A stretch of 64,000 nucleotides of DNA, taken from positions 13,625-77,624 of the forward strand of contig JBGSTS010000106.1 of NCBI GenBank assembly GCA_041736435.1, in the 5' to 3' direction. The notes under the pieces are model-generated. The model had not been told where the DNA came from, made no database searches, and saw only the letters and a list, made by a program, of their open reading frames with translations. Every line of letters starts with the position of its first letter. Positions within the stretch are counted from its first letter, which is position 1. Made by a program: the position numbers and the translations under genes. Source of the stretch: Desulfobacterales bacterium (GTDB taxonomy: Bacteria > Desulfobacterota > Desulfobacteria > Desulfobacterales > SpSt-501). This document shows, in pieces, positions 362 to 61,060 of the stretch.

Positions 362-628
362 ATGGGCAGCGAGGCTGACAGGTATTGGACGCAGGCGGAG
401 GTAGCCGAGAGATGGAGATGCTCGGAGGCCAACATCAAGAATCTTCGTGAGCGTGGCCTCATCGGTTTTTTCCAGTTCGGACGGTCCATCCGCTATCTCC
501 AACAGGACATCGTCGAATTCGAGAACCAACACACCAAGCAAAGGAAAGGAGGTGCGCCACCCAAGGCGAGAAGCGCTGTAAGAAAGCCTGATGTATCGCC
601 CGCCTCGCCACGGCAATGGAGGATTTGA
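362..628 (+). CDS. Excisionase/AlpA-like helix-turn-helix DNA-binding protein
   Basis: 88-aa ORF. AEVAERWRCSEANIKNLRERGLIGFFQFGRSIRY looks like an Xis/MerR-type HTH. It ends 2 nt before the integrase ATG. Confidence 0.6.
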   Translation: MGSEADRYWTQAEVAERWRCSEANIKNLRERGLIGFFQFGRSIRYLQQDIVEFENQHTKQRKGGAPPKARSAVRKPDVSPASPRQWRI

Positions 629-629
629 C

Positions 630-1793
630 ATGGCGAAAAAGAATCATCACCTGGTTCGGCGGGGTGATGTTTGGTATTTAACCGTGGTGGCAGGGGGGCG
701 GCGCATAAAAAAGGCGCTGTCCTCCTCCATCACGGAGGCCAGACAACTCCGCAACGAACACCTTGAGCAGATACGGATCACCGGGGACATCCAGAAACCG
801 GAGCCTGCCAAGCCATGCCCTTTGTTCGGGGAGGTGGCGCAGAAATGGGCGAAGGTGAAGGAGAAGAAGGTGAAGTCCTCGACGCTGAAGGACTACCGAT
901 CTGCGATGAACATTTACGTCCTACCGCGATTCGGGAACGTCCCTATTGACAAGATTTCCTACGGGGATGTCGAGGTGTTCATCAGCGAGTTGAAGTGTAG
1001 CGCCAAGCGGATCAACAACATCCTGGTGCCCATGCGGGCGTTGATGAAGTTCGCGTTCAAGGACGGGCTGATCGAAAAGAACCCAATGGCGTTGGTGGAG
1101 AACCTGAAGGTCGTGAGGCCATCCATCAACCCGCTGTCCATGGACGAGGTCCATAAGTTCCTGGCTGCGGTCAGGCCGTTCTACAATCCGTTCTTTATCG
1201 TCGCCTTTTTTACCGGGATGCGCTTTGGCGAGATGGCCGGGCTCAAGTGGCAGAACGTGGATTTCAAACTCGGCGTGGTGAAGGTTCAGGAGACACGAGT
1301 GAGAGGAGAGGAAGGCCGGCCCAAGACCAAGGGGTCGGTGCGGGACATCAAGATGCTTCCGCCGGTCGTTGAGGCGTTCAGGGAGCAGCGCAAAATCACG
1401 ATGGGACGCTCGGACTACGTTTTCCTGAACAAGTTCGGACGGCCGCTTCTGCCCAACTCGATCCACTTCCACGTCTGGAAGCCAGGTCTCAGGAAAGCCG
1501 GCCTCAAGGTGCGGTCCCTCTACCAGACACGGCACACCTTCGCCACGCTGATGCTGGATGGCGGTGAACTTCCTGGATGGGTCCAGAAGATGATGGGCCA
1601 CGAGAGCCTGAAAATGATTCTGGAGCGATACTACTCGTACATCAAGAACTATGAGCGCGATGACGGCCTGGCGTTCATGGAAAAGGTCTACAGGCCGAGC
1701 CAGAACCACCAGAAGCAGGAAGAGGGGGAAAAGGGAACAGCGAAAAATCTGACCCCAAATTTACCCCAAAATGAAAAACGGGAATCGGCTTGA
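630..1793 (+). CDS. Tyrosine-type site-specific recombinase (phage integrase family)
   Basis: Catalytic-domain signatures FFTGMRFGE, TRHTFATLMLDGG and GHESLKMILERYYSY (R..HxxR..Y). GGAGG lies 7 nt upstream of ATG 630. The track ORF from 591 is probably an over-extension. Confidence 0.9.
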   Translation: MAKKNHHLVRRGDVWYLTVVAGGRRIKKALSSSITEARQLRNEHLEQIRITGDIQKPEPAKPCPLFGEVAQKWAKVKEKKVKSSTLKDYRSAMNIYVLPRFGNVPIDKISYGDVEVFISELKCSAKRINNILVPMRALMKFAFKDGLIEKNPMALVENLKVVRPSINPLSMDEVHKFLAAVRPFYNPFFIVAFFTGMRFGEMAGLKWQNVDFKLGVVKVQETRVRGEEGRPKTKGSVRDIKMLPPVVEAFREQRKITMGRSDYVFLNKFGRPLLPNSIHFHVWKPGLRKAGLKVRSLYQTRHTFATLMLDGGELPGWVQKMMGHESLKMILERYYSYIKNYERDDGLAFMEKVYRPSQNHQKQEEGEKGTAKNLTPNLPQNEKRESA

Positions 1794-1835: not shown

Positions 1836-2192
1836 TGGTGGAGGCGGCGGGAGTCGAACCCGCGTCCGAAAACATTCCACCCAAGCATCTACGTGTGTAT
1901 CCCGGATATTAAGTCTCGCCTCATGTGACTCCTCCAGGCGGGATGCACAATCGGCCAGCCCACTAAGGTTCGCCGTCCCGGCCGCAGGCGCACCGGAACC
2001 GCTATCCCGCTAGTCGACGCCCTTTACCGGATCTGCAGGAGAGGACCCGGCAGGACGGTAGCTGCGCTAGGCAGCTACGGCGTACGCATAATCGTCTGCG
2101 ATTATGTTTAGCCCCATCAGGATTTACGAGCCGACAGGACGCTCGACACGCAGCTTGAATTTCATTGTCCCCGTCGAAACCGTATCGCCCCC
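1836..2192 (-). ncRNA. ssrA: tmRNA (SsrA), 357 nt
   Basis: Minus strand reads 5' GGGGGCGATACGGTTTCGACGGGG ... GGACGCGGGTTCGACTCCCGCCGCCTCCACCA 3' (tRNA-Ala-like acceptor/T-arm with encoded CCA). Internal tag frame GCA GAC GAT TAT GCG TAC GCC GTA GCT GCC TAG gives ADDYAYAVAA*. It lies directly downstream of smpB. Confidence 0.95.
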
Positions 2193-2364
2193 AATAGCAC
2201 AAGCATTACGCTCGAGGCTGAAAGCTGGACGACGACGTCCTCGTCCAGCTTTCAGAAATGGGAGAGTATTTAAAAGAACGTTTAAATAGAAAATAATGTA
2301 TTCCTGAGGGTTTGTCAACATAAGGGGGCGTATCGTCAGGGCTTTGCTCAAGGCAGCTAAAGGA

Positions 2365-2823
2365 TCAGCGCTGTTTGCGGGCGCGGTCGACCTCGCGTTT
2401 CTGCTCGCGCTCACGGATGCTGTGGCGCTTGTCGAACTCGCGCTTGCCCTTGACCAGGGCGATGACGACCTTGGCCTTGCCCTTTTTGAAATAGATCCGC
2501 AGGGGCACCAGAGTGTGGCCCTGCTCGTTGACCTTGGCGTAGAGGCGCATGATCTCGCGTTTGTGCAGGAGCAACTTGCGCACCCGCAGCGGTTCGTGAT
2601 TGTTGTAGTAGGCGAACGGGTAGGGGCTGATGTGAACCTGGTAAAGCCAGACCTCCCCGTCTTTGACTTTGGCGTAAGCGTCCTTGAGGTTCACCTTGCC
2701 CATCCGCATGGACTGGACCTCGGTGCCGGTCAGCATGATCCCCGCTTCGTATTGGTCGACGATGGTATAGTCGTGGCGGGCCTTGCGGTTTTCCGAAACG
2801 ATTTTGATGGGGGAAGTGTCCAT
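2365..2823 (-). CDS. smpB: SsrA-binding protein SmpB
   Basis: 152 aa. IVSENRKARHDYTIVDQYEAGIMLTGTEVQSMR and the basic C-tail are typical of SmpB. Adjacent to ssrA. Confidence 0.95.
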   Translation of the reverse strand: MDTSPIKIVSENRKARHDYTIVDQYEAGIMLTGTEVQSMRMGKVNLKDAYAKVKDGEVWLYQVHISPYPFAYYNNHEPLRVRKLLLHKREIMRLYAKVNEQGHTLVPLRIYFKKGKAKVVIALVKGKREFDKRHSIREREQKREVDRARKQR

Positions 2824-4596
2824 TTACGTCTTCAGAGCCTGCCGGTGGTTGGTCATGAATTCCCCGAAAGCGCTGCGCACGACGCCGAGAACTTTCAAAG
2901 CGGTCGGCTGCTTCAACACTTCCTGCACCGCCTCACGGCTGTCAGCGGCGCTGATCGCACGCACCATGCGTTTGACCACGGGGATGGCCGCCGGGTTCAT
3001 GCTGAGCTCATCGAAGCCCATGCCGAGCAACAGGGGGGCATAGAGCGGGTAGCTGGCCATCTCCCCGCACATGCACACCTTGATGCCCCGGTCCCGGCCC
3101 ACGTCTGCGGTGTGCTTGATCAGGCGCAGCACCGCCGGGTCCAGCGGCTGGTAGAGATGCGACACTTGCTTGTTGCCGCGGTCGATGGCCAACGCAAACT
3201 GGATGAGGTCGTTGGTCCCGATGCTGAAGAAATCCACCTCCCGCGCCAGCAGGTCCGCCATGACCACCGCCGATGGCACCTCCACCATGATTCCCACCGG
3301 GATGTCGCGTCGGTAGGGCAGGCCGTCTTTTTCAAGCGACTCGGCTGCTTCGTCCAACAGGCGCTTCGCCTCGCAGATTTCGAAATAGATCGAGATCATC
3401 GGAAAAATAATGCGCACCTCGCCCAGCACGGCTGCCCTCAGAATGGCCCGCAGCTGAACCTTGAACACCTCCGGCCGCCGCAGGCAATAGCGGATGGCGC
3501 GCAGGCCGAGGGCGGGGTTTGCTTCGGCGGGACCGGTGTCCAGGGACATGGCCTTGTCGCCGTTGATGTCCAGGGTGCGGAAGGTGACCGGCCGGGGCGC
3601 CATGACCTCGATGACATCCTTGTACCCCTCGAGCAGTTCGTTTTCGGAAGGGAAGGTGGCGCGGTTCAGATACTGGAACTCGGTGCGGTACAGACCGATT
3701 CCGTCGCCGCCGTAGTTCAGGACCGAGACGACCTCCTCGGGCAGCTCGATGTTGCCCATGATGTCGATGTGCAGACCGTCGCGGGTTCTGGCCTCCAGGT
3801 GGCTTTCGCGGGTGAGCACGGCGCGATAGCGCTCGTAGCCGATCTGGAGTTCCTGATAGTCGATCAGGGTGCCCTCGGAAGGCCGTGCAATCACCACCCC
3901 GGCCGTGCCGTCGACGATGATGATGTCGTCGTTGCGGATCTCGCGCGTGGCCGTCTCCAGGCCGACCACGGCCGGAATTTCCAGGCTGCGGGCGATGATG
4001 CCGGTGTGGGAGGTCTTGCCCCCCAAATCGGTGATGAAGCCCTTGATGCGCTCGAGGTTGATCTGGCTGGTGTCCGCCGCCGAGAGGTCGTGCGCCACCA
4101 GGACCACGCGCTTGTCGATGCTGCCGATGCTCTCGACCTTGGCGCCGGTCAGGTTGCGCATGACCAGGTTGGAAACATGCGTGATGTCGGACATTCGTTC
4201 CTTGAGATAGGTGTCCGGCATTTCATGGAAGACGGACATGATCTGGTTGACCACGGTCTTGAGGGCCCACTCGGCGTTGACGCTCTCCTTTTCGATGGTT
4301 TCGATTGTCCGGCCATAGAGCAGCTTGTCGTTCAGGAGCACCACGTGGGTTTCGAGGATGTGGCCCTTTTGAAGCTCCGGCGGGCTGTTTTCGATTACGG
4401 ACTGAAGCTCGTGCTTGGCGGCCTGAACGGCGGATTTGAAGCGCTTGATCTCGCTCTTCACCTTGTTCGCAGGCAGGGGGTAGCGGTCGATCACGTCCAC
4501 CCCTTCGCGGTCGACGTGATAGGCCTTGCCGATGCAGATGCCCGGCGAGGCATTGATGCCTTTCAACACGAGCTCTTGGGTTCGGGGTCTTTTCAT
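2824..4596 (-). CDS. ptsI: Phosphoenolpyruvate-protein phosphotransferase (PTS enzyme I)
   Basis: 590 aa. Contains GICIGKAY, GGKTSHTGIIARSLEIPAVVG (phospho-His region) and FFSIGTNDLIQF, CGEMA (PEP-utilising TIM barrel). Confidence 0.93.
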   Translation of the reverse strand: MKRPRTQELVLKGINASPGICIGKAYHVDREGVDVIDRYPLPANKVKSEIKRFKSAVQAAKHELQSVIENSPPELQKGHILETHVVLLNDKLLYGRTIETIEKESVNAEWALKTVVNQIMSVFHEMPDTYLKERMSDITHVSNLVMRNLTGAKVESIGSIDKRVVLVAHDLSAADTSQINLERIKGFITDLGGKTSHTGIIARSLEIPAVVGLETATREIRNDDIIIVDGTAGVVIARPSEGTLIDYQELQIGYERYRAVLTRESHLEARTRDGLHIDIMGNIELPEEVVSVLNYGGDGIGLYRTEFQYLNRATFPSENELLEGYKDVIEVMAPRPVTFRTLDINGDKAMSLDTGPAEANPALGLRAIRYCLRRPEVFKVQLRAILRAAVLGEVRIIFPMISIYFEICEAKRLLDEAAESLEKDGLPYRRDIPVGIMVEVPSAVVMADLLAREVDFFSIGTNDLIQFALAIDRGNKQVSHLYQPLDPAVLRLIKHTADVGRDRGIKVCMCGEMASYPLYAPLLLGMGFDELSMNPAAIPVVKRMVRAISAADSREAVQEVLKQPTALKVLGVVRSAFGEFMTNHRQALKT

Positions 4597-4602
4597 CCGC
4601 TG

Positions 4603-4881
4603 TTATTCCTCAAAACCGGTTTCGATCAGCCGAGCCAGGGTCTCGAGCACCAGGCGATCGGCCGGGTCCTCGGCCGCCAGGGTCAGCCGTGCCCCCCGGG
4701 CACACCCTAAAGCGAGCACGTCCATGATGCTCGTGGCGTCGGCCTTCTCTTCACCGAAAACGACCCAGATGCGTGATCTCGCCTCTTGCGCGGCCCGGGC
4801 GAACCGGGCCGCCGGCCGCGCGTGGAGCCCGAGTTCGTTCACGACGGTGACGTTTCTGGTCAGGTGGTTGCTGAGTGCCAC
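4603..4881 (-). CDS. ptsH: HPr-family phosphocarrier protein
   Basis: VTVVNELGLHARPAARF is the active-site His motif. The start is placed at GTG 4881, giving a ~92-aa HPr-sized protein. The track start ATG 4938 lies inside repeat copy A1 and would add 19 atypical residues. Confidence 0.8.
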   Translation of the reverse strand: MALSNHLTRNVTVVNELGLHARPAARFARAAQEARSRIWVVFGEEKADATSIMDVLALGCARGARLTLAAEDPADRLVLETLARLIETGFEE

Positions 4882-4928
4882 GCGGCTGCCTGCATCATCG
4901 ATGCCGTCGCGCCCGATTCGACCGTTTA

Positions 4929-5074
4929 CAGTGTCCATCCGGCAATGGTGGATTATGGTTCATGTCAAGGCCGCAGCGATTTTGCAACCGGAGGCGCAGT
5001 GGGTCACCGCCGAGGATTGCGACGAGCGAGAACGCCGGCCTGGGCCGAAAGGCGCCGTTATTGGATGGACACTA
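4929..5074 (+). repeat. Family-A structured intergenic repeat, copy A1 (~146 nt long imperfect hairpin)
   Basis: cAGTGTCCATCC...ATGGTGGATTATGG...GCAACCGGAGGCG...CGCCGAGGATTGCGA...GGCGCCGTTATTGGATGGACACTa. The terminal arms are complementary. Homologous to the copies at 7225, 15098, 17832(-), 34721 and 56916. Confidence 0.85.
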
Positions 5075-5197
5075 TTAGTTGACCCCTTTATCGAACGAGT
5101 TGCGTAAATCTATAGATCAATCCGTGCGCGTTGACAAGACTTCAGGCGGCTGCTACTGCTTGATGATTCAGATTGAACCGACAACCGTGGAGGTTTT

Positions 5198-5416
5198 ATG
5201 AGCGAAACGGTGTTGATTTTCGGCAAAGACAAGTGACCCTTTACCCGTTCGGCTCGTGAAGCCTATATCAAAGAAGGCCGCCAGGTGAACTACGTCGATG
5301 TTCTGGGCAATCCGCAGAGCCTGCAGGAGATGCTGCGTCATTCAGGGGGTAACCGTCGCGTGCCGGTAATCGTCGACCGGGGCAAGGTGTCGACCGGCTT
5401 CGACGGCGGTTCCTGA
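5198..5416 (+). CDS. Glutaredoxin-like (NrdH/YruB-type) protein with in-frame UGA at the redox-motif position; candidate selenoprotein
   Basis: GGAGG lies 4 nt upstream of ATG 5198. Codon 13 is TGA (5234-5236). Read-through gives MSETVLIFGKDK-U-PFTRSAREAYIKEGRQVNYVDV...RRVPVIVDRGKVSTGFDGGS*, a complete Grx fold with U where the first Cys of CPYC sits. Confidence 0.65.
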
Positions 5417-5468
5417 AGGGTTTGAACTGTTTCGGCGGGACGCCGAAACCCGACTCGGAAAGAACGCT

Positions 5469-7055
5469 ATGGCGGCAAGCTCCTCGGAACGAAGCGGTCG
5501 GCTGCGGCGGGATGCGGGCCGCGATGCGTCCCCGCGGCAGGTGCCTGACGGCATGGGCGCGCTGCAGCGCCAAAACGAGTATCTCTGGGCCCTGCACGAG
5601 ACCTCGCTGGGGTTGATCGACCGGCTGGACAAGGAGGAGCTGCTCGAAGCCGTGCTGCACCGGGCCGCGCGCATGACCGGCACCGAGCACGGGTTTATCT
5701 ACCTGCTCGACGCCGACGAGAACCGTATGCAGATGCGGGTGGGCATGGGGTTCTTCAAGGAGCAGCTGGGCCTGAGCGTGCGCCCGGGGGAAGGCCTGGG
5801 CGGCCGGGTGTGGCAGGATCAGACCGTTCTCTTGGTGGACGACTATCACCGTTGGCCCGGGCGGCTGGCGGGCAAGTCTTTGGATCGGCTGCGCAGCATC
5901 GTCGGCATTCCCTTAAAGTACCGGGGCCGGGTGGAGGGCGTGATCGGCCTGGCGCACGTGGAGGTGCACAAGGGTTTCCAGGCCGAGGACATCGTCGTGC
6001 TCGAACGGTTCGCGGAGCTCGCCACCGTGGCCCTCGACAAGGCACGGCTTTACGCGGAGGCCCGCTGCGAGCTGGCTGAGCGCAAGCGCACTGAGGAGAT
6101 CCTGCGGGATAGCGAGGCGCGCTACCGTCTGCTGCTCGAGTCCTCGCCGGACCCGGTGGTGGTGTACAGCACGCAGGGCGAGGCCCTTTACGTGAACCCG
6201 GCCTTCGAACAGACGTTCGGGCTCCGGCGCGAGGAGCTGCTGGGCAAGCAGATCGATTTTGTGCCCGAAGAAAACTGGCCGGAGACCCGCGCGGCGATCG
6301 AGAACATGATGCAGGGCGAGAAGATCCAGCTGTTCGAGACCCGCCGCCGCACCCGTGACGGCCGCACCCTGGACGTGCAGCTGAGCTCTACTCTGTTCTT
6401 CGACCACGACGGCCGACCGGCCGGTAACATCGTGACGCTGCGGGACATCAGCGCCCTGAAGCGCGTCGAGCACGAGCTGCTCAAGTACCAGACGCAGCTG
6501 GAGGACCTGGTGGCGGCCCGCACGACGGAGTTGGCCAGTGCCAATGCCCGCATGGCTCAGGAAGTGGTAGGGCGCAAGCGCACGGAAGCCAATCTCCGCA
6601 AACGGGAAAGGGAGCTCAAGGCCCAGTCCATGCATTTGCAGGAAGTCAACACCGCCTTGAAGGTTCTCTTGCGGCAACGCGAGGGCGACCGCAAGGAGTT
6701 CGGCGAGATGGTGGTGTCCAACACCCGTGAGCTGATCAGCCCCTACCTCGAACAACTGAAAAAGAGCCGCCTGACGTCGATGCAGCGCGCCATGGTCGAC
6801 ATTCTGGACGCCAATCTCGAGAACATCATCTCCCCGTTCATCAGCAAACTCTCCAGCCGCTACGCCAACCTCACCCCGACCGAGATCCGTGTGGCCGGCC
6901 TGGTCAAGGAGGGCAAGACCAGCAAGGAGATCGCCGAGCTGCTCTATCTTTCCAAGAACACCATCCTCTTCCACCGGCACAACATTCGCACCAAGCTAGA
7001 TCTTCGAAAAAGCAAGAAAAACTTGCGATCTCACCTGCTCGGGCTCGAAAAATAG
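5469..7055 (+). CDS. GAF/PAS sensor, LuxR-family transcriptional regulator
   Basis: GAF-like N-terminal half, a PAS region (PDPVVVYSTQGEALYVNPAFEQTFG), a coiled coil, and a C-terminal LuxR HTH (LTPTEIRVAGLVKEGKTSKEIAELLYLSKNTILFHRHNIRTKL). The start is uncertain; ATG 5553 is an alternative. Confidence 0.85.
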   Translation: MAASSSERSGRLRRDAGRDASPRQVPDGMGALQRQNEYLWALHETSLGLIDRLDKEELLEAVLHRAARMTGTEHGFIYLLDADENRMQMRVGMGFFKEQLGLSVRPGEGLGGRVWQDQTVLLVDDYHRWPGRLAGKSLDRLRSIVGIPLKYRGRVEGVIGLAHVEVHKGFQAEDIVVLERFAELATVALDKARLYAEARCELAERKRTEEILRDSEARYRLLLESSPDPVVVYSTQGEALYVNPAFEQTFGLRREELLGKQIDFVPEENWPETRAAIENMMQGEKIQLFETRRRTRDGRTLDVQLSSTLFFDHDGRPAGNIVTLRDISALKRVEHELLKYQTQLEDLVAARTTELASANARMAQEVVGRKRTEANLRKRERELKAQSMHLQEVNTALKVLLRQREGDRKEFGEMVVSNTRELISPYLEQLKKSRLTSMQRAMVDILDANLENIISPFISKLSSRYANLTPTEIRVAGLVKEGKTSKEIAELLYLSKNTILFHRHNIRTKLDLRKSKKNLRSHLLGLEK

Positions 7056-7104
7056 TGGGTAATTACCGCTATTAAGCTACTATTTTATCTAATGCAATAA
7101 AGTA

Positions 7105-7133
7105 TTGACTAAACATAAAACATCTTATAGAAA
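7105..7133 (+). promoter_or_regulatory. Putative sigma70-like promoter with no protein gene downstream
   Basis: TTGACT (7105-7110), then TATAGA/TAGAAA after a 15-17 nt spacer, inside an AT-rich island between convergent genes. It points into palindrome 7145-7161 and repeat copy A2. Confidence 0.25.
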
Positions 7134-7144
7134 TCACTTTACGA

Positions 7145-7161
7145 AATGAATTCTATTCATT
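7145..7161. promoter_or_regulatory. 17-bp AT-rich palindrome AATGAAT-TCT-ATTCATT (Fur-family-box-like)
   Basis: Perfect 7-bp arms with a 3-bp spacer, seen directly in the sequence. Confidence 0.3.
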
Positions 7162-7224
7162 CAAATGCCCGGTTATTTTACCCATTTTACAAAATCGGAT
7201 CAGGGGTTCAGGCGCATCGTGAAG

Positions 7225-7369
7225 AGTGCCTATCCAAACATGGTGGATTTCGGTTCAGGCCATGGCCGCAGCGATGTCGCAACCGGAGGCGCAGTTGAGC
7301 ACCGCCATGGATTGCGACGCAAGAGAACGCCGGCATGGGCCGAAAGACGCCGTTTATGGATGGGCACTA
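7225..7369 (+). repeat. Family-A structured repeat, copy A2
   Basis: AGTGCCTATCC...ATGGTGGATTTCGGTTCAGGCCATGGCCGCAGCGATGTCGCAACCGGAGGCG...GGATGGGCACTA. Its last 3 nt are the complement of the phnD stop codon. Confidence 0.85.
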
Positions 7370-8377
7370 GTTGTATTTTTCGACGAATTTCACGTAGGAC
7401 TGAATGTCCGCAAGCTTCTTTTCGATGTCCGCAAGCTTTTTAGCCTTGTCGGCGGCGGCCATCGTATCGTTGCTCTGGAGTTTCATCCTCTCCTTGGCCA
7501 TGTCGATCTCCATGATCGGCAGCAGCTGGTGGTTGGACGAATCCTGGAAGGGCGCCCAACCGGAGCTCATACCGGCCAGCACCGTGCGCTCCTTCTCCTT
7601 GTCGGTCCCAATGCGGCCGTAGGCCAAGAAGAACCCCTTGATCTTGCTCTTCCACTCCTTGGAGAGGTCCTTGCGCCACACCATGGGGTCGCTCGGGATC
7701 AGAGGGCTTTTCCAGATGGCGCGGACGTTCTTGATCTGCTCAGGGTGGGCCTTCGCAAACTTATCCCAGTTCTCGGTGTTGTTGGTGGCGAAATCCACCT
7801 GCTTGTTGGCCACCGCCATCAGGTTGGTCTCGTGGTTGGCGCTGCGCATCAGTTTGAAGTGCTTGGCCGGGTCGATCCCGCGCTGGCCCCAGATATAATA
7901 GGTGGGGATGAGGTTTCCGGAGGTGCTGTTGGGGTCCCCGTTGCCGAAGGTGAGGTTCTTGCCGTCACGGAGGATCTCGTCGATGCTCTGGTAGGGGCTG
8001 TCCTTGTGTACAACAATGAGCGACCAGTACCCCGGGTTGCCGTTGACATCCACGGTCTGGACGAAGACCTCCCCGCCGGCACGGTTGACGGCCTCGATCG
8101 CGGATTTGTTGCCGAACCAGGCGATCTGAACCTTGTTGAAGCGCATGGCCTCGATCACGCCGGCATAGTCGGGGGCGATGAAGAGCTTGACCGGGATGCC
8201 CAGATGCTTTTCCATGTCTGCCCGGAAAGGCTCGAACCCCTTCATCGCGGAGGAGGTCGATTCGGTGGGGATGATGCCGATCGTAATCTCCTTCAGCTCT
8301 TCGGCCGCGCGCGCGGCACCGGCCGCCAGCACCAGCGCAGCCACCATTCCAACCAACAGCCAACTCAGTTTTTTCAT
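7367..8377 (-). CDS. phnD: Phosphonate/phosphite/phosphate-type ABC transporter substrate-binding protein (PhnD family)
   Basis: Signal peptide MKKLSWLLVGMVAALVLAAGAARA. TIGIIPTESTS...FIAPDYAGVIEAMRFNKVQIAWFG is typical PhnD. The C-terminal coiled-coil tail carries an in-frame 21-nt tandem duplication (KKLADIE/KKLADIQ). Confidence 0.8.
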   Translation of the reverse strand: MKKLSWLLVGMVAALVLAAGAARAAEELKEITIGIIPTESTSSAMKGFEPFRADMEKHLGIPVKLFIAPDYAGVIEAMRFNKVQIAWFGNKSAIEAVNRAGGEVFVQTVDVNGNPGYWSLIVVHKDSPYQSIDEILRDGKNLTFGNGDPNSTSGNLIPTYYIWGQRGIDPAKHFKLMRSANHETNLMAVANKQVDFATNNTENWDKFAKAHPEQIKNVRAIWKSPLIPSDPMVWRKDLSKEWKSKIKGFFLAYGRIGTDKEKERTVLAGMSSGWAPFQDSSNHQLLPIMEIDMAKERMKLQSNDTMAAADKAKKLADIEKKLADIQSYVKFVEKYN

Positions 8378-8457
8378 TTTCGGGCTCCTTCTCGTTTGGG
8401 TGATGGGTCAATTCCGATTCAACCGGCAACGGTAGAACCGATAGGGAAAAAAGAGGG

Positions 8458-9312
8458 TTATGCCCCCGCAGCAATGGCGGCGGGCTGCCTGCAGACGCCA
8501 AGATCCAGCGGAGTGGTCCCGTCGAGATCGATTTCGGCGGAAGGGATATTATAGATGTTGCGCAGCGCCGTGGGGGTGAGATCGGCGCTGGGGCCGTCGT
8601 ATACCACCCGGCCCTCCTTCATGGCGATCGACCGCGGGCAATACTGCAACGCGAACTGGACCTGGTGCAGGCTGACCAGAACGGTGACCCCGTCCTGCTG
8701 GTTCAGGGCCGTGAGGCATTCCATGACGCAGCGGGCAGACTCGGGATCCAGGGAGGCGATGGGCTCGTCGGCCAGAATGATCCGGGCACGCTGCTCCATG
8801 GCGCGGGCGATCGCCGCGCGCTGCTGTTGACCGCCCGAGAGCGTGCTGGCTCTCTGGGCGGCGTATTCCGCGAGGCCGACACGGCCCAGGGCGTTCATGG
8901 CGCGCAGTTTCTCCTCGCGGCTAAACCAGGCCAGCAGGCTGCGCCAGGTGCCCACGCGGGCCAGCATGCCGGCCAGCACATTGGTGATCAGCGGCAGTCG
9001 GCCCACCAGGTTGAACTGCTGGAAAATAAATCCGACCTCGGAGCGGATGCTGCGGATGTCGGGGGATACGACACCGTTTTTTTGGACCTCACGGCCGAAA
9101 ATGCGGATGACCCCCGAGCCGCGATCTCCCGCGAGCAGCCCAGAGACATGCCGCAGCAAGGTCGACTTGCCCGAGCCGGAGGGGCCGATCAGGGCCACCA
9201 TCTCGCCCGGGGTCACGCGAATCCCGACTCGGTTTAGCGCCCGGCGTTTGCCGAAGGTTTTGTTGACGGTTTCAATCTCGATGGCGGCCGGCTGAGAGTC
9301 TGAAATCCGCAT
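8458..9312 (-). CDS. phnC: Phosphonate-type ABC transporter ATP-binding protein (PhnC family)
   Basis: Walker [13 protein letters not shown], signature [14 protein letters not shown], Walker B ILADEP. Confidence 0.85.
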
Positions 9313-9370
9313 GGTCTATATCCTTCCTGAAAGGGTGTCGCCGATGACAGGGTGAGTGTGACCACCCCAA

Positions 9371-9387
9371 ATTAGGTGCATATTAGG
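9371..9387. promoter_or_regulatory. Two ATTAGG hexamers phased 11 bp apart (possible OmpR/PhoB-type direct-repeat site)
   Basis: ATTAGGTGCAT-ATTAGG lies in the divergent phnC / pst intergenic region, about 60-75 nt upstream of the phnC start. Confidence 0.15.
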
Positions 9388-9587
9388 ATTCAGTGTTTTT
9401 TCGGTTGAATTTTATGCGTGAGCGGGAGAGGTTCGACGGGAGATCGTACGATTGCAGTTTTTTAACCCGCGGCTAATTCGCTGGTAACAGAGACGAACTA
9501 TCGTGTGCATCCAATGCCGGTCCGCCGGGGCGGGCCGTTCACTCCAGCCGGGCTGCTTGTGGGCCCACCTGTGGAAGGAAGGACATC

Positions 9588-9809
9588 ATGACCAGCAATC
9601 CCTGCCGTCTCTGCTCCCTGGGAAACTCGGACAAGAACAACTCCACCTGCCTCAAATGCGTCAAGCGGGTCGCCTACGTGGCCACAATCGATCGGGAGCT
9701 GAACTTCGCCGCTTGCCGATCCGAGCTGCACGCCACAGCGCCGCGCTGCCCGATAATTTCCCGTCAGGCCTATTTTCTGTCGGTGAGTCCCGAAATATAC
9801 TATGAATGA
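9588..9809 (+). CDS. Small Cys-rich (CxxC...CxxC zinc-ribbon-like) protein, unknown function
   Basis: 73 aa. GGAAGGAAGGA Shine-Dalgarno-like run just upstream of the ATG. Third positions are strongly GC-rich. Contains CRLC...CLKC. Confidence 0.45.
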   Translation: MTSNPCRLCSLGNSDKNNSTCLKCVKRVAYVATIDRELNFAACRSELHATAPRCPIISRQAYFLSVSPEIYYE

Positions 9810-9964
9810 AATAGACCACCGGTCTGCAGCTATAGGAAATGGACACTGAAAATGGGCGAATGTCCGGGCTAACTCAATCTGAGTCTTATTCTAACGCCGC
9901 GCTAACACTTGCAGCTTAGGCTTCGTTCAATTTTTTCCTCGTTTCGAAAGGAACTTAGGGGACC

Positions 9965-11353
9965 ATGTCGCCTTTGACCCTGTTTACAGTTTTGATTCTG
10001 CTCTCGGTGGCCGGGTATTACTACGGCAAGCGCAGGGCGTTCGCCCTGGACGGGGGGCCGGGCGCGTCCGTCAGGCTCCACTCCCGGCCCACCTACCATG
10101 GGGCGCTGGCAGCCCTGTGGTGCGCAATTCCGGCGGTGTGCGTGTTTGCGGCTTGGCTGCTGTGTGAAACCCAGATCATCACGCATCTGGTCATATCCGG
10201 GCTGCCCGATGCCGTGCGCGGGCTGCCGGCGGACCGGATGAACCTGGTCGTCAATGACATCCGCAATATCGTGGCGGGCAACGTGGTCGCGGCCACGGTT
10301 GACCCGGCCATGCAGGCCGCCGCGGACCACTACCGCAGCCTCAAGGCCACCAGCCATGCCGGCCTGGCGGTCACAACACTGTGCGTGGGGATCGCCGCCC
10401 TGCTGATGGTTCGCAGCCGCATCGTGCCCACCCTGCGGGCCCGCAACCAGGTCGAGTCCATCATCACCGTTCTGTTGGTCGCCTGCTCCACCATTGCCAT
10501 CTTCACCACGCTCGGTATCGTGCTTTCGGTGCTCTACGAGTCGATCCTGTTTTTCCGTGTCGTCCCGGTGACCGAGTTCCTTTTCGGCCTTGACTGGAGC
10601 CCCCAGATGGCCATCCGGGCCGACCAGGTGGGTTCATCCGGGGCCTTCGGTGCCGTGCCTGTTTTTGTGGGAACGGCGCTGATCTCCGCCATTGCCATGG
10701 CCGTCGCGGTGCCCATCGGGCTGATGTCCGCCATCTATCTGTCGGAATATGCCGGCAAGCGCTTGCGGGCGGTCGTCAAACCCCTGATCGAAGTGTTGGC
10801 CGGGATTCCCACCGTGGTGTACGGGTTTTTTGCCGCCTTGACCGTGGCGCCCCACATCCGCGGGATCGGGCAGTGGGTGGGGCTGAATGTCGCATCGGAG
10901 AGCGCCCTGGCAGCCGGCCTGGTCATGGGGGTCATGATCATTCCCTTCGTTTCGTCTCTGTCCGACGATTTCATCAACGCTGTGCCCCAATCCCTGCGGG
11001 ACGGGGCCTACAGCCTGGGGGCCACCCGGTCCGAAACCATTCGCCAGGTGATCCTACCGGCGGCCATTCCGGGGATCATCGGCGGTGTTCTGCTGGCCGT
11101 GTCGCGGGCGATCGGCGAGACCATGATCGTGGTCATGGCGGCCGGGCTCTCGGCCAACCTGACGGTGAATCCGCTTCAGGCTGTCACCACGGTGACCGTG
11201 CAGATCGTCACCTTGCTCGTGGGCGACCAGGAGTTCGACAGTCCCAAAACATTAGCCGCTTTCGCCCTGGGGCTCGTGCTGTTCGTGATCACCCTGTGCC
11301 TCAACGTCATCGCCCTTTACGTGGTGCGCAGATATCGCGAGCAATACGAATAG
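9965..11353 (+). CDS. pstC: Phosphate ABC transporter permease PstC (long form)
   Basis: 462 aa, multi-TM. EAA-loop region (SLRDGAYSLGATRSETIRQVILPAA). Confidence 0.9.
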   Translation: MSPLTLFTVLILLSVAGYYYGKRRAFALDGGPGASVRLHSRPTYHGALAALWCAIPAVCVFAAWLLCETQIITHLVISGLPDAVRGLPADRMNLVVNDIRNIVAGNVVAATVDPAMQAAADHYRSLKATSHAGLAVTTLCVGIAALLMVRSRIVPTLRARNQVESIITVLLVACSTIAIFTTLGIVLSVLYESILFFRVVPVTEFLFGLDWSPQMAIRADQVGSSGAFGAVPVFVGTALISAIAMAVAVPIGLMSAIYLSEYAGKRLRAVVKPLIEVLAGIPTVVYGFFAALTVAPHIRGIGQWVGLNVASESALAAGLVMGVMIIPFVSSLSDDFINAVPQSLRDGAYSLGATRSETIRQVILPAAIPGIIGGVLLAVSRAIGETMIVVMAAGLSANLTVNPLQAVTTVTVQIVTLLVGDQEFDSPKTLAAFALGLVLFVITLCLNVIALYVVRRYREQYE

Positions 11354-11389
11354 CCCCAGCATTCGTTAAAAATTTTCCACCGCTCACAT

Positions 11390-12676
11390 GTGACAACCAT
11401 GAACGACAACGAGACTCGGCTTCGAACCATCGACATCGTCAAGCAGGGGCTGGCCAAGCGCTACCGCGCCGAGCGGCGCTTTCGCCTTTACGGGCTTTCC
11501 GCCATCGTGCTCAGCATCACGGCCCTGGCCCTGCTCTTCGTCAGCATCATCGGCAACGGCTACACGGCCTTCTGGCAGACCCGGATCCGCCTTGACATCA
11601 CCTTCGATGCGGAGGTGCTGCAGCGGGACACCCTGGCAGGCGCCGACTACGCCGCACTGGTTCGGACGGCGCTTCAAAAGATGTTTCCCGAGGTTAAAAG
11701 CCGGCAGGAGCGCCGCCTTCTCAACGGGTTGATCAGTTCGGGCGCGGCCTATGAACTGCGTGATTTGGCTCTTAAAGACCCCGATATCGTGGGGAAAACC
11801 GTGTCGTTGTGGCTGTTTGCCGACGACGACATCGATATGATCGTCAAGGGCCAGTTCAGCCGGGATGTGGCCGAGGAGAACCGGCGGGTCTCCGACCAGC
11901 AGCTCGCCTGGCTCGACCGGTTGAGCGCCGAGGGTCGGGTCGAGGAGCAGTTCAACCTCACCTTCTTCCGGTCGGGGGATTCGCGCGAGCCGGAGCAGGC
12001 GGGGATCTGGGGTGCGGTCATGGGGTCCTTTTTCACCCTGGTCATCACCCTGGTTCTCTCGTTTCCCATCGGCGTGGCGGCCGCCGTCTATCTCGAGGAG
12101 TTTGCCCGCAAGAACCGCTGGACCGACCTGATCGAGGTCAACATCAACAACCTGGCGGCGGTGCCCTCGATCGTCTTCGGCCTCCTGGGGCTTGCCGTCT
12201 TCCTCAATTTCTTCGGCCTGCCGCGATCGGCGCCGCTGGTGGGCGGGCTGGTGCTCACCCTGATGACACTTCCCACCATCATCATCGCCAGCCGCTCGGC
12301 GCTCACATCGGTGCCGCCCTCGATCCGCGAGGCCGCCCTCGGGGTGGGGGCTTCGAAGATGCAGATGGTGGTGCACCATGTGCTGCCCCTAGCGGTGCCG
12401 GGCATGCTGACCGGCACCATCATCGGCATGGCCCGGGCCCTGGGGGAAAGCGCCCCGCTGCTCATGATCGGCATGGTGGCCTTCATCGTGGACATCCCCA
12501 AAGGGGTCTTCGACCCGGCCACCGTGCTTCCGGTCCAGATCTTCCTCTGGGCGGACAGCCCGGAGCGGGCCTTCGTGGAGCGCACCTCGGCCGCCATCAT
12601 CGTGCTGCTGGGCTTTTTGCTGGTGATGAATGCGACGGCCGTCATCCTGCGCAAAAAATTCGAGCGGCGCTGGTAA
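11390..12676 (+). CDS. pstA: Phosphate ABC transporter permease PstA (long form)
   Basis: 428 aa. IREAALGVGASKMQMVVHHVLPLAVPGMLTG is the EAA loop. Start is GTG 11390 or ATG 11399. Confidence 0.9.
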   Translation: MTTMNDNETRLRTIDIVKQGLAKRYRAERRFRLYGLSAIVLSITALALLFVSIIGNGYTAFWQTRIRLDITFDAEVLQRDTLAGADYAALVRTALQKMFPEVKSRQERRLLNGLISSGAAYELRDLALKDPDIVGKTVSLWLFADDDIDMIVKGQFSRDVAEENRRVSDQQLAWLDRLSAEGRVEEQFNLTFFRSGDSREPEQAGIWGAVMGSFFTLVITLVLSFPIGVAAAVYLEEFARKNRWTDLIEVNINNLAAVPSIVFGLLGLAVFLNFFGLPRSAPLVGGLVLTLMTLPTIIIASRSALTSVPPSIREAALGVGASKMQMVVHHVLPLAVPGMLTGTIIGMARALGESAPLLMIGMVAFIVDIPKGVFDPATVLPVQIFLWADSPERAFVERTSAAIIVLLGFLLVMNATAVILRKKFERRW

Positions 12677-12811
12677 TCCATTCCTGAACCGAATTCAAAC
12701 GAGACGCTCATACGCGGCTAATAATACCCCCCTATTTTCCGGATCATCGATCGGAGATATCCGTTTCGAGTTATGTCAATTAAAAACAGCGCAACACCAC
12801 AAGGAGGAAGC

Positions 12812-13861
12812 ATGAAGAAAGCAGTCATCGTCACCCTGGCCGCAGTTTTTGTGGCGGCAACCCTCGGAACCGGCTTCGCCCAGCAGAGGGACTACATCAG
12901 CATCGTCGGGTCGTCGACCGTCTACCCCTTCTCCACTGTCGTGGCGGAAAAGTTCGGCAAGATGGGATCGTTCAAGACCCCCAAAATCGAATCCACCGGC
13001 ACCGGTGGCGGGTTCAAGCTCTTCTGCGGCGGTGTGGGCGTCCAGCACGCCGACGTCTCCAACGCTTCGCGGGCCATTAAAGCCTCGGAGTTCGAGACCT
13101 GCCAAAAGAACGGAGTAACCGACATCGTCGAGGTCAAGATCGGCTACGACGGGATCGCCGTGGCCAATTCCAAGAAAGCCCCGGTCCTGAAGCTCTCCCG
13201 CAAGGACCTCTTCATGGCCCTGGCCAAGGAGGTCCCCGACGCCCAGGGCGGCAAACTGATCCCCAACCCCTACAAAACCTGGAAAGAGGTGAACGCCGCG
13301 CTGCCGGCCGTTAAGATAGAAGTCCTCGGTCCTCCGCCGACCTCCGGCACCCGCGACGCCTTCCTCGAGCTGGCCATGGAAGCGGGGGCCAAGAAGTTCG
13401 AGATGTTGAGCAAGCTCGCCAATGAGGACGGCAAGAAATTTCAGGCGGTGGCCCATACCATCCGCGAGGATGGCGCCTACATCGACGCCGGCGAAAACGA
13501 CAACCTGATCGTGCAGAAGCTCGATGCCAACCCCAATGCGCTCGGGATTTTCGGCTTCAGCTTCCTCGACCAGAACCTGGATAAGCTCCATGGGTCGCTG
13601 ATTGACGGGGCCCAGGCGGAATTCGACAGCATCGCCAGCGGCAAGTACCCCCTGTCCCGGCCGCTTTTCTTCTATGTGAAGAAGGCCCACGTCGGTGTCA
13701 TCCCGGGCATCAAGGAGTTCCTGGCCGAGTTCACCAGCGAAAAAGCCTGGGGCAAGGACGGCTACCTGAGCGAAAAGGGGCTCATTCCCATGCCCGAAGC
13801 CGAACGCAAGCAGGTCGCCGAGAGCGTCAAGGCGCTGAAGCCCGTCACCAGCGCGAAGTAA
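12812..13861 (+). CDS. pstS: Phosphate ABC transporter substrate-binding protein (PstS family)
   Basis: AAGGAGGA just upstream of ATG 12812. Signal peptide MKKAVIVTLAAVFVAATLGTGFA. Contains IVGSSTVYPF and GTGGGFKLFC motifs. Confidence 0.9.
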   Translation: MKKAVIVTLAAVFVAATLGTGFAQQRDYISIVGSSTVYPFSTVVAEKFGKMGSFKTPKIESTGTGGGFKLFCGGVGVQHADVSNASRAIKASEFETCQKNGVTDIVEVKIGYDGIAVANSKKAPVLKLSRKDLFMALAKEVPDAQGGKLIPNPYKTWKEVNAALPAVKIEVLGPPPTSGTRDAFLELAMEAGAKKFEMLSKLANEDGKKFQAVAHTIREDGAYIDAGENDNLIVQKLDANPNALGIFGFSFLDQNLDKLHGSLIDGAQAEFDSIASGKYPLSRPLFFYVKKAHVGVIPGIKEFLAEFTSEKAWGKDGYLSEKGLIPMPEAERKQVAESVKALKPVTSAK

Positions 13862-15246: not shown

Positions 15247-17034
15247 TCAGGCGGGGTTGGGGCCCCGGGGCAGGTGGATGGTGAAGGTGCTGCCCTCGTT
15301 CAGGGCGCTGGCGACGTCCACGTGCCCGCCGTGGGCCTGGGAGATGTGCTTGACGATGGCAAGACCCAGCCCGGTGCCTCCCATGGCGCGGCTACGGGCC
15401 TTGTCCACGCGGTAGAACCGCTCGAAAAGCCGCGGCAGGTGTTTGCGCTCGATTCCGATCCCGTGGTCCTGAACGCTGATTTGAATTTCGTCTGTGGTCT
15501 GCCGCGCAGCGAGCCGGATTGAGGTTTCGGTGTCGCTGTACTTGATGGCGTTGTCCAGTAGGTTCACCACGGCCTGTTCGATCAGAACCGGGTCCACGAC
15601 CGCCGCCAGGTTTTCATCACCGGCCAGCTCGATGCGGATGCGCTTTTCATCGGCCCCCGGGCGGCAGACCTGAAGCGCGTTCTGGAAGATCTCCCGCAGC
15701 CGGGTTTTTTCCTGCTTCAGTTCGCGGCGCTCCCCCTGGTCCTCGATCCGCGAGAGCATCAACAGATCCTCCACCACGGTCGTCAGCCGGTCGACATGCT
15801 TGGCCACGATCCCTAAGAACCGTTTGGCCTCCGCCGGGTTTTCGACGACCCCTTGGTTTAAAGTCTCCACAAAGCCCTTGATGGCGGTCAGGGGGGTCTT
15901 GATCTCATGGGAGACGTTGGCCACAAAATCGCGGCGCATGTTTTCCAGCCGGCGCAGCTGAGTGACGTCGTTGAACACGATCAGGGTGCCGATCAGCTCC
16001 TGGCCGGCATCCAGAAGCGGGGCGCTGCGGATGTTGAGGACGCGCTCGCCGCTCTGGTAGACGACGATGTCGTCCTCCATGGGCGCCCGGCTGCGCAGCG
16101 CCTGGATGATGAACTGCTGCATGGCCATGTTACGGATGGCCTCGGGGATGCTGCGTCCCCGGATCTTTTCGGGCTCCGTTTCGAACCATTTGGCCGCCGC
16201 CGGGTTCAGGCTGATCAGCCGCTCCTCGCGGTCCACCGCGATGACCCCCTCCAGCATGCTCGAGAGCACGGCCTCGAGCTGGTTGCGCTGGCTGATGACA
16301 GTCTGCATGCGCCCCTCGAGCTGCGCTGCCATGCGGTTGAGAGACTCGGCCAGCCCGGCCAACTCGCCGGAATCGGGGATGGGCAGCCGGTGGGCGAGCT
16401 CGCCCTGGGCGAAGCGGGCGGCGCCGCGCTGCAGCTCACCGAGCTTGCGGGCGTATTGACGCGAAATCAGAAGTGTCATCCCGAGAGCCAGCAGAGCGAT
16501 GGCGGCGCCGATCAGAAAAACCTCAAGGCGGATCCGGGAGAGCTCCGTTTGCACCCGGGAGAGCGGGATGGCGGCGCGGATGACGGCCAGCGGTTGCATT
16601 CCCAGCGGGACCGAGACCGCCTGATAGATGATTTTCTGCCGAAGCGTTTCACTGAATCGGGTGGTATGCGCCGACCCAAGGCGGAGGGCCGCGGCCACTT
16701 CCGGCCGGCCCGCATGGTTGTCCATGTTCCGGGGGGTGTCCCGCGAATCGCCCACAACCAGCCCGTCGGGGAGGATGACGGTAAAGCGGGTCTCCGAGTT
16801 TCGGCCGGCGTTTTTGCAGATCTCGTCGATGATGTCGGTATCGGGCGGGCTCAGGTGCTTTTCGATTTGGGACTCGAGCAGGCGGGCCCGCTGGGTCAGG
16901 TCGGTGGCGATCTGGTCGACCAGGAACTGCTCCAGCGAGCGCATGGAGTACCAGCCGGCCGCGAGGAGCGCTCCGAGCGTGATCAGAACGTAGGAGATGA
17001 ACAGCCGCCACACCATTGCCCGGCGTCGGTTCAT
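15247..17034 (-). CDS. phoR: Phosphate-regulon-type sensor histidine kinase (PhoR-like; TM-HAMP-PAS-HisKA-HATPase)
   Basis: FVANVSHEIKTPLTAI (H-box), DNAIKY (N-box), GGTGLGLAIVK (G-box). Overlaps phoB by 4 nt. Confidence 0.85.
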   Translation of the reverse strand: MNRRRAMVWRLFISYVLITLGALLAAGWYSMRSLEQFLVDQIATDLTQRARLLESQIEKHLSPPDTDIIDEICKNAGRNSETRFTVILPDGLVVGDSRDTPRNMDNHAGRPEVAAALRLGSAHTTRFSETLRQKIIYQAVSVPLGMQPLAVIRAAIPLSRVQTELSRIRLEVFLIGAAIALLALGMTLLISRQYARKLGELQRGAARFAQGELAHRLPIPDSGELAGLAESLNRMAAQLEGRMQTVISQRNQLEAVLSSMLEGVIAVDREERLISLNPAAAKWFETEPEKIRGRSIPEAIRNMAMQQFIIQALRSRAPMEDDIVVYQSGERVLNIRSAPLLDAGQELIGTLIVFNDVTQLRRLENMRRDFVANVSHEIKTPLTAIKGFVETLNQGVVENPAEAKRFLGIVAKHVDRLTTVVEDLLMLSRIEDQGERRELKQEKTRLREIFQNALQVCRPGADEKRIRIELAGDENLAAVVDPVLIEQAVVNLLDNAIKYSDTETSIRLAARQTTDEIQISVQDHGIGIERKHLPRLFERFYRVDKARSRAMGGTGLGLAIVKHISQAHGGHVDVASALNEGSTFTIHLPRGPNPA

Positions 17035-58473: not shown

Positions 58474-58695
58474 TCCTAAACCTCCCTAAAAAAATGACCT
58501 CTACCGAGAGCACAACGCTCAAAGCAGAGGTCATCATCCCACTCTTTAAGGTGTATGGGCGGTTGCGGCTGACCTCATAGCCCGCAGAATCAATCATACC
58601 CTTTCCGAGCCCTCACCGAGTGTCAAGACATTCAGATTTCGGCGCTCGACCGACCTAAGGCTTTCGGCTCAAATAAAATGTTATTAAAATCCGTG

Positions 58696-60942: not shown

Positions 60943-61060
60943 GCTGCCGGATTTTCGGCAGACCAGCGAGGGGATGGAGTCCCCCCTACAACCGCCCATC
61001 TTGGGCTGATGACTCCTGCCGTGCCCCCATCCCGCGGCGGAGCCGTCTGCCCTCGACGAT

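Follow-up and report, generated by a model that had tools for sequence, protein, structure and literature searches.

The locus at position 5198 of the sequence analysed here, a 64-kb stretch of Desulfobacterales DNA referred to below as the window, raises the question of how a small reading frame with a TGA at its thirteenth codon is translated and where the resulting protein ends. The initial annotation had described a candidate selenoprotein preceded by a GGAGG ribosome binding site, starting at ATG 5198, carrying TGA at codon 13 (5234-5236) and staying open to the TGA at 5414-5416, and all of these elements were found as claimed upon re-reading. In the standard reading this frame yields MSETVLIFGKDK, a stop, PFTRSAREAYIKEGRQVNYVDVLGNPQSLQEMLRHSGGNRRVPVIVDRGKVSTGFDGGS (that is, PFTRSAREAY...GFDGGS) and a further stop at TGA 5414-5416, and the standard ORF listing accordingly offers just a 43-aa fragment (5285-5416) at the selenoprotein locus. 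The protein had been considered complete at 5416, which it is not: the TGA at 5414-5416 is most probably a second Sec codon, beyond which the same frame continues with AGG GTT TGA (5417-5425), giving the tail S-U-R-V-stop and placing the true stop at 5423-5425. The selenoprotein CDS spans positions 5198..5425 of the plus strand, with 75 codons and a stop, two Sec residues (U13 and U73) and the layout MSETVLIFGKDK-U-PFTRSAREAYIKEGRQVNYVDVLGNPQSLQEMLRHSGGNRRVPVIVDRGKVSTGFDGGS-U-RV-stop. With high confidence, it can be assigned to the double-Sec form of UXX-star selenoprotein family 1, each UGA having its own hairpin, while the actual insertion of Sec at both UGAs is predicted from the nucleotide sequence. 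The elements of the gene are as follows.

5189..5193, plus strand: ribosome binding site GGAGG, 4 nt upstream of ATG 5198, read directly from the sequence
5234..5236, plus strand: Sec codon 1 (UGA), at the nucleophile position of the [C/U]-P-[F/Y]-T motif, aligned with Cys in 75 of 81 loci
5251..5263, plus strand: candidate SECIS-1, a 4-bp stem GGCU/AGCC with the loop CGUGA, inside the coding region
5414..5416, plus strand: Sec codon 2 (UGA), the U in "UXX-star" by which the family is defined, three codons from the end
5423..5425, plus strand: true stop (UGA); across loci the final stop is TGA in 41, TAG in 25 and TAA in 15
5429..5449, plus strand: SECIS-2, a 9-bp stem GUUUCGGCG/CGCCGAAAC with the loop GGA, in the 3' untranslated region

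Species-representative genomes were scanned twice, which yielded 80 distinct homologous loci; together with the window these make up a set of 81. Alignment of this set supported the earlier placement of the first UGA at the position of the nucleophilic Cys of a gene with a glutaredoxin fold, as the active-site codon is Cys (TGC/TGT) in 75 loci and TGA in the remaining six, all of which belong to Desulfobacterales (the window and five Desulfobacterales/Desulfobacteraceae MAGs). The tail codon is TGA in 80 of the 81 loci and TAA or TAG in none, the sole exception being a locus with Cys (GGACGV-stop). Two codons follow the tail TGA in 79 loci and three in one, after which comes a stop whose mixed type (TGA, TAG or TAA) indicates a genuine terminator. 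In the window this stop is again a UGA (5423) and sits 3 nt before the hairpin 5429-5449; since the stem would have been opened by the time this codon occupies the ribosomal A site, the hairpin appears too close to prevent termination, which is consistent with TGA being the real stop in 41 of the 81 loci. Purine-rich sites similar to GGAGG are found 5' of the start codon in homologous loci too, and the residues invariant in an alignment of 110 sequences are G9, K10, P14, T16, those of the cis-Pro segment (V-P) and, ahead of the tail, G67 and G70.

In the proteins obtained from two database searches, W occupies both Sec columns in 71 of 124, and the DNA of two such W/W proteins has TGA at both columns. 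These make up at least 71 database clusters, on top of the six loci above, with TGA at both Sec columns mis-called as Trp, and the double-Sec form is therefore common in metagenomes. Faulty public gene calls were noted for P0002, P0003, P0007 and 68 others and for loci L088-L091: in many members TGA is read as Trp, and where the real stop is also TGA, calls of this kind run through it and gain spurious C-terminal extensions. Other members of the family are cut at the tail TGA in public calls and bear the name "glutaredoxin 3".

Two in-frame TGAs within 75 codons, and the public translation of TGA as Trp in many homologues, could also be accounted for by a decaying glutaredoxin pseudogene, by a sequencing error or by TGA serving as an ordinary amino acid codon. 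Decay, which the initial annotation itself had named as a reading to be checked, is contradicted by the comparison of the window with five U-form relatives, in which the gene displays neither frameshifts nor further stops and the dN/dS ratio stays below 1 (0.2-0.5 for codons 14-72 and 0.17-0.37 for codons 1-12). An error in the sequence is opposed by an independent Logan assembly of another run, identical over 4963-7293 (2,331 nt), and by four runs (three DNA metagenomes, from hot spring and biofilm, and a metatranscriptome) with zero variants at 5234-5236, 5414-5416 and 5423-5425. As regards the genetic code, TGA terminates 29 of the 57 long ORFs of the window (TAA 18, TAG 10) and Trp is encoded by TGG; the code is standard, TGA being the commonest ordinary stop, and it is Cys, not Trp, that is aligned with both TGA columns in homologues. 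This group of explanations is effectively refuted and can be given hardly any weight. A search for other single-TGA-interrupted genes in the window returned 44 candidates, all of which look like off-frame noise or ordinary N-terminal extensions.

The locus is transcribed, with the caveat that metatranscriptomes can contain DNA: a metatranscriptome contig covering 5190-5670 takes in the complete gene together with its 3' hairpin, reaches 200 nt into the gene that follows and preserves every TGA, so that the selenoprotein gene and the downstream gene are probably co-transcribed. Four substitutions separate this RNA contig from the window, namely two synonymous changes and L42M within the CDS and a fourth change in the adjacent gene, and the TGAs thus persist in a slightly diverged strain. 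As for the Sec machinery, ARAGORN detected no tRNA-Sec in the 64-kb window, and selA, selB and selD were absent among its size-matched ORFs; Desulfobacterota are among the most selenoprotein-rich bacteria (PMC13326102).

The main and strong SECIS of the gene, missed when the protein was taken to end at 5416, lies past the true stop at 5429-5449. According to criteria of the bSECISearch type, the loop of a bacterial SECIS is located 16-37 nt from the UGA, comprises 3-14 nt and has G in its first two bases, on top of a stable upper stem. Both the geometry and the stability of the element after UGA-2 agree with this description, the spacer being 12 nt, the loop starting at +24 and the extended hairpin reaching -14.8 kcal/mol. 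When SECIS-like hairpins were defined by dG <= -7.5 kcal/mol, a loop position between +16 and +30 and a G as the first or second loop base, they were found after the tail UGA in 67 of 80 loci (84%) versus 26 of 154 random TGA triplets taken from the same loci as controls (17%; Fisher p=1e-23). RNAalifold analysis of the 24 sequences that are unambiguously alignable revealed a 7-bp stem with double compensatory changes in 6 of its 7 pairs. The hairpin lacks a T-run and was not called by the terminator scan. A search against Rfam, run in gathering mode for the whole window and in E-value mode for 4700-5500, gave no SECIS family, just a noise match to isrG. Judging by geometry, stability and covariation, the hairpin 5429-5449 is predicted to be the SECIS of the second Sec; with just two codons and the stop left after U73, it falls in the 3' untranslated region and is free of coding constraint. 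A precedent for a bacterial SECIS after the stop is provided by SaoC, in which UGA-UAG precedes a stem of 7 bp capped by a GGU loop (10.1101/2022.07.06.499078). Both genes are bacterial and have a UGA at the extreme C-terminus, then a real stop and a hairpin just downstream, the UXX-star gene having a 9-bp stem and a GGA loop; SaoC, however, belongs to an unrelated lipoprotein-like family, contains a single Sec (Cys-Sec-COOH) and resides within the SAO gene cluster (10.1101/2022.07.06.499078).

In the case of U13, the small hairpin at 5251-5263 had been put forward as a possible, if weak, part of a SECIS, and this suggestion is supported by comparison, not by energy. All four of its pairs can form in 6 of 6 U-forms versus 3 of 75 Cys-forms (Fisher p=3e-7, uncorrected for phylogeny, the pairing counts across loci being phylogenetically non-independent), and two of the three fully paired Cys-forms are the nearest Cys-form relatives. 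In L003 and L004 the outer G-C pair is replaced by U-A via synonymous third positions, which amounts to one compensatory change, and two more metagenomic U-forms retain 4/4 and 3/4 of the pairs. The geometry comprises a 14-nt spacer after UGA-1, a loop starting at +21 and G at the second loop position. The stem, however, has just 4 bp, the extended hairpin reaches -6.5 kcal/mol, the region folds no better than its shuffles (z = -0.40), and the same stretch in Cys-forms folds as well as the UGA-1 region of the window. A lower stem, seen in L001, L002 and L006, is missing in the window. Folding of 5234-5300 to minimum free energy produced a long alternative hairpin (the one with z = -0.40), which is unconserved in other U-forms and was set aside in favour of the mini-hairpin. 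Taken together, the hairpin 5251-5263 is probably the SECIS for U13, weak in the gene of the window, and its weak energy implies that insertion at U13 may be inefficient.

The weakness of this element, together with the fact that gene callers report just the 43-aa fragment 5285-5416, would also be compatible with decoding of the C-terminal UGA alone, UGA-1 being a nonsense codon of the subclade and the gene either dead or reduced to a fragment restarted at GTG 5285. Such a fragment would be devoid of strand b1 and the active site. Moreover, TGA is kept at the UGA-1 column in six divergent genomes and in at least 71 metagenomic clusters, the mini-hairpin is specific to U-forms, and the 12 codons upstream of UGA-1 are conserved along with the start codon and ribosome binding site, evidently under purifying selection, as the dN/dS values of codons 1-12 indicate. 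A dead or restarted gene is therefore very improbable, and decoding of both UGAs as Sec is the reading retained below.

The identity of the family was established by profile comparison, with U written as C. The 72-residue reading scored 96.3 bits (E=9e-28) against NF041114 (NCBIfam, UXX-star selenoprotein family 1), for which the curated (equivalog) cut-off is 72 bits, and addition of the U-R-V tail raised the score to 103.6 bits, with profile positions 1-70 of 70 matched. The Pfam Glutaredoxin model PF00462 was matched with 35.8 bits (E=9e-9); E-values of this order for the two models place the match far beyond chance. All defining features of NF041114 that can be tested in silico are present in the 5198-5425 gene, namely the U-X-X-star ending (TGA AGG GTT TGA at 5414-5425), a glutaredoxin-like fold with the [C/U]-P-x-T motif (as judged from PF00462, the invariance of P14 and T16 in the 110 sequences and the AF2 model of a homologue) and, for the C-terminal UGA, a SECIS beyond the stop, the hairpin 5429-5449. 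The architecture of the gene is already encoded in the family name.

The initial annotation had assigned the product to NrdH/YruB-type glutaredoxins, an assignment that has to be abandoned, since the scores of 16.6 bits versus 85.75 (TIGR02194) and 29.3 versus 88.55 (TIGR02196) are far below the cut-offs, the C-terminal helix is lacking and the motif is U-P-F-T, not CxxC. The same is true for the classical dithiol glutaredoxins (TIGR02181 GRX_bact; 29.4 bits versus 90), as the second Cys of CPYC is replaced by Thr and the model ends after b4, without the C-terminal helix that in this class goes with the GSH-binding GG-x-DD segment; the gene belongs to none of these groups. Neither is the U-x-x-T arrangement unusual, as had been supposed: [C/U]-P-[Y/F]-T is the invariant motif of the family, and its two-Sec UxxT form has already been tabulated, a 2026 review listing UXX-star family 1 as UxxT with 2 Sec (PMC13188914). 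The review refers to the NF041114 family as "Distant Grx-like protein 1" and credits it to its reference 61, Zhang and Gladyshev 2008, naming Haft and Tolstoy 2025 as the source of the related UXX-star families (PMC13188914). A profile search of the protein database revealed at least 2,237 family clusters at E<=1e-5, spread over Desulfobacterota, Acidobacteriota, Planctomycetota and others, and the NCBI names of the Cys/U forms already read "UXX-star (seleno)protein family 1". The feature was rediscovered correctly: its family, experimentally uncharacterised, had been catalogued before and holds nothing new to specialists.

Compared with UXX-star family 1 as a whole, the copy in the window is above the cut-off over the full profile and possesses [C/U]-P-x-T, the cis-Pro segment GNRRVPVIVD, the U-x-x-stop tail and the SECIS after the stop, and nothing essential is different. 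The active-site Sec is a minority state among species-representative genomes (6 of 81), and the GAF-PAS-LuxR regulator downstream of this copy is clade-specific. UXX-star families 2 and 3 and the HUGP/GUXX-star fusion (NF041211, NF047338 and NF045501) share the glutaredoxin-like scaffold and the C-terminal U-x-x-stop, yet the window protein scores 40-52 bits against their cut-offs of 97-325, which corresponds to a sister-family relationship, not membership.

Structural modelling was performed for the double-TGA homologue P0027, which is 60% identical and recorded with W in both Sec columns, on the basis of an alignment of 109 sequences. The AF2 model (mean pLDDT 85) has the topology b1(4-9)-a1(14-24)-b2(29-34)-a2(39-48)-b3(57-60)-b4(63-66); the C-terminal helix is absent, and the tail is placed in beta-bridges with a pLDDT of about 75. 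The Foldseek search with this model retrieved glutaredoxins, with TM of 0.79 for 3ic4, followed by cGrx1 (7c10, 7c12) and NrdH (1h75, 0.73). A sequence profile search of the PDB returned distant glutaredoxins only (best E=4e-6), so the family has no member with a solved structure. According to the model, the protein is a minimal thioredoxin-fold domain of the glutaredoxin type in which the C-terminal helix would be replaced by the tail G-G-S-U-R-V. The GG motif of glutaredoxins, the segment that directly follows b4, lies next to the active site. With classical and Sec glutaredoxins (CPYC or UxxC; PF00462, TIGR02181) and with NrdH/YruB the protein shares the thioredoxin-fold core, a nucleophile placed at the start of helix 1 and a cis-Pro loop, the Foldseek TM values for 3ic4, 7c10 and 1h75 ranging from 0.73 to 0.79 (P0027 model). 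Unlike these proteins, it has Thr for the second Cys of CxxC and a Sec-bearing tail for the C-terminal helix, its TIGR scores amount to 17-29 bits against cut-offs of 86-90, and there is no nrdEF neighbourhood.

A Sec close to the C-terminus is also known from mammalian thioredoxin reductase, the GCUG tail of which is short and flexible, with Sec a few residues before the stop and the SECIS necessarily in the 3' UTR. The likeness consists in a tail Sec that acts, presumably also in the UXX-star protein, with another redox-active residue. The mammalian enzyme, however, is a large flavoenzyme with a eukaryotic SECIS/SBP2 system and an adjacent Cys partner, whereas here the reader would be bacterial SelB, the protein has 75 residues and the presumed partner is the distant active-site residue. 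Another parallel is offered by the SelL-type UxxU redoxins of Shchedrina et al. 2007, which reportedly have a thioredoxin fold and two Sec proposed to form a diselenide; both Sec of SelL are located in one UxxU motif, whereas those of the UXX-star gene are 60 residues apart in sequence.

In the family, the position of the resolving Cys of CxxC is always Thr and the tail Sec is almost always present. In the proposed mechanism, SelB would read two UGAs as Sec, each directed by its own hairpin, with the in-frame hairpin 5251-5263 serving U13 of U-P-F-T and the strong hairpin 5429-5449 serving U73, while the third UGA (5423), too near the hairpin for recoding, would bring about termination. U13 would be the nucleophile attacking the substrate, and U73 on the tail would be its resolving partner, as the motif has Thr instead of the second Cys. 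The protein would then cycle between a diselenol and an intramolecular U13-U73 diselenide, the equivalent in the Cys-13 majority forms being a selenenylsulfide. A diselenide redox centre formed by U13 attack and U73 resolution is the best account at hand, though a tentative one, slightly short of an even chance. Somewhat less probable still is its fuller version, in which the protein would rank among the smallest diselenide oxidoreductases in nature, its redox potential being very low and its resolving residue being delivered by a tail in place of the C-terminal helix.

The same two Sec could, on the other hand, act as soft ligands for a metal or metalloid (e.g. Hg, As, Cu or selenium itself), the protein being a chaperone or sensor; binding of metals or metalloids has been suggested for UXX-star family 1 (PMC13188914). 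Two selenolates on a tiny scaffold make a good chelator, and the regulator directly downstream fits a sensing module. The evidence of gene context and fold points elsewhere: the fold, the [C/U]PxT motif and the cis-Pro "VPV" are features of thiol-disulfide oxidoreductases, and in any clade examined the gene is adjoined not by metal-resistance or transport genes but by ptsH-ptsI-smpB, a LOG-family protein, a ThyX-like protein or the regulator. Metal binding, though the chief rival, is rather unlikely, and the diselenide redox centre is the reading preferred here. The surroundings of the gene in the window are the following.

1836-2192, minus strand: ssrA/tmRNA, with the tag ADDYAYAVAA
2365-2823, minus strand: smpB
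2824-4596, minus strand: ptsI
4603-4938, minus strand: ORF of ptsH/HPr, with the HMM match from residue 27
5469..7055, plus strand: GAF-PAS-LuxR(HTH) regulator (Pfam GAF_2, PAS and GerE), starting 19 nt after SECIS-2

The selenoprotein gene is divergent from the minus-strand ssrA-smpB-ptsI-ptsH genes, and this gene order recurs in 10 Desulfobacterales loci, comprising both U- and Cys-forms; the shared pts/smpB order looks like inheritance rather than a functional link. The GAF-PAS-LuxR regulator is found downstream only in the window and in L001, L002 and L006, its closest relatives. In many other Desulfobacterales the downstream gene is a LOG-family one, and in Acidobacteriota it codes for a 533-aa ThyX-like protein. 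Among the loci examined there is no partner conserved across phyla, and the context consequently gives no function. The 533-aa ThyX-like protein (PF02511, two matched stretches) is encoded ~155 nt past the UXX-star gene in 26 loci, mostly of Acidobacteriota (L005, L015, L018, L020 and others), and on the same strand as the UXX-star gene in 21 of 27 copies; a link to flavin-dependent thymidylate synthesis in Acidobacteriota is possible. Between the window and L001, protein identity amounts to 73% for the selenoprotein versus 86-96% for PtsI, SmpB, HPr and the regulator, so the small redoxin evolves much faster than its neighbours, with dN/dS still below 1.

Several further features of the window were recorded. 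The plus-strand ORF 2344-4710 (788 aa), which has 81% identity in relatives and no Pfam match, was rejected as an antisense shadow of minus-strand ptsI and smpB; it is betrayed by its composition, rich in L/A/V/G/D/H and poor in K. Two other familyless ORFs likewise lie opposite genes, 7226-8554 (plus strand) opposite PhnD (7367-8377, minus strand) and 11384-12379 (minus strand) opposite PstA (11390-12676, plus strand). A tyrosine recombinase/integrase gene (591-1793, plus strand) abuts the 3' end of the tmRNA gene (1836-2192, minus strand), an arrangement typical of genomic islands integrated at ssrA; the island would run towards lower coordinates and out of the window. Between ptsH and the selenoprotein gene lies a 144-nt MITE-like repeat (4930-5073) with 11-nt terminal inverted repeats AGTGTCCATCC ... 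GGATGGACACT; a second copy, degenerate at its right end, is located at ~56917-57080, inside the 3' part of ORF 56911-58473. The depth of this repeat in metagenome contigs is ~30-80x the local background (1940 versus 30 in X1), many contigs contain it, in either orientation, assemblies break there, and it has no Rfam match.

Phosphonate/phosphate uptake genes occupy 7367-13861 (a PhnD-like binding protein, a PhnC-like ATPase, PstC, PstA and PstS), and a PhoR/PnpS-type histidine kinase is encoded at 15247-17034, which together suggests a phosphate-starvation regulon beside the selenoprotein locus. Two fluoride riboswitches were detected, at 58518-58591 (minus strand) and 60961-61025 (plus strand). 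The latter is upstream of a CPA2-family cation:proton antiporter gene (61125-62345), and the former precedes the 520-aa ORF 56911-58473, whose sole matches are dynamin-like/small-GTPase models and which would be unusual as a fluoride-regulated gene.

With regard to annotation, the gene described here is missed by standard ORF callers, and public databases contain either the 43-aa fragment or a protein with Trp at both Sec positions. Three UGAs are found within 190 nt, two of them predicted to be read as Sec and one as stop, and the gene is a clean natural example of a post-stop bacterial SECIS. Should the diselenide reading be true, an in-frame stem of no more than 4 bp would be enough for a bacterial SECIS to function for U13, and the diselenide protein might convey a signal of redox or selenium status to the GAF-PAS-LuxR regulator.
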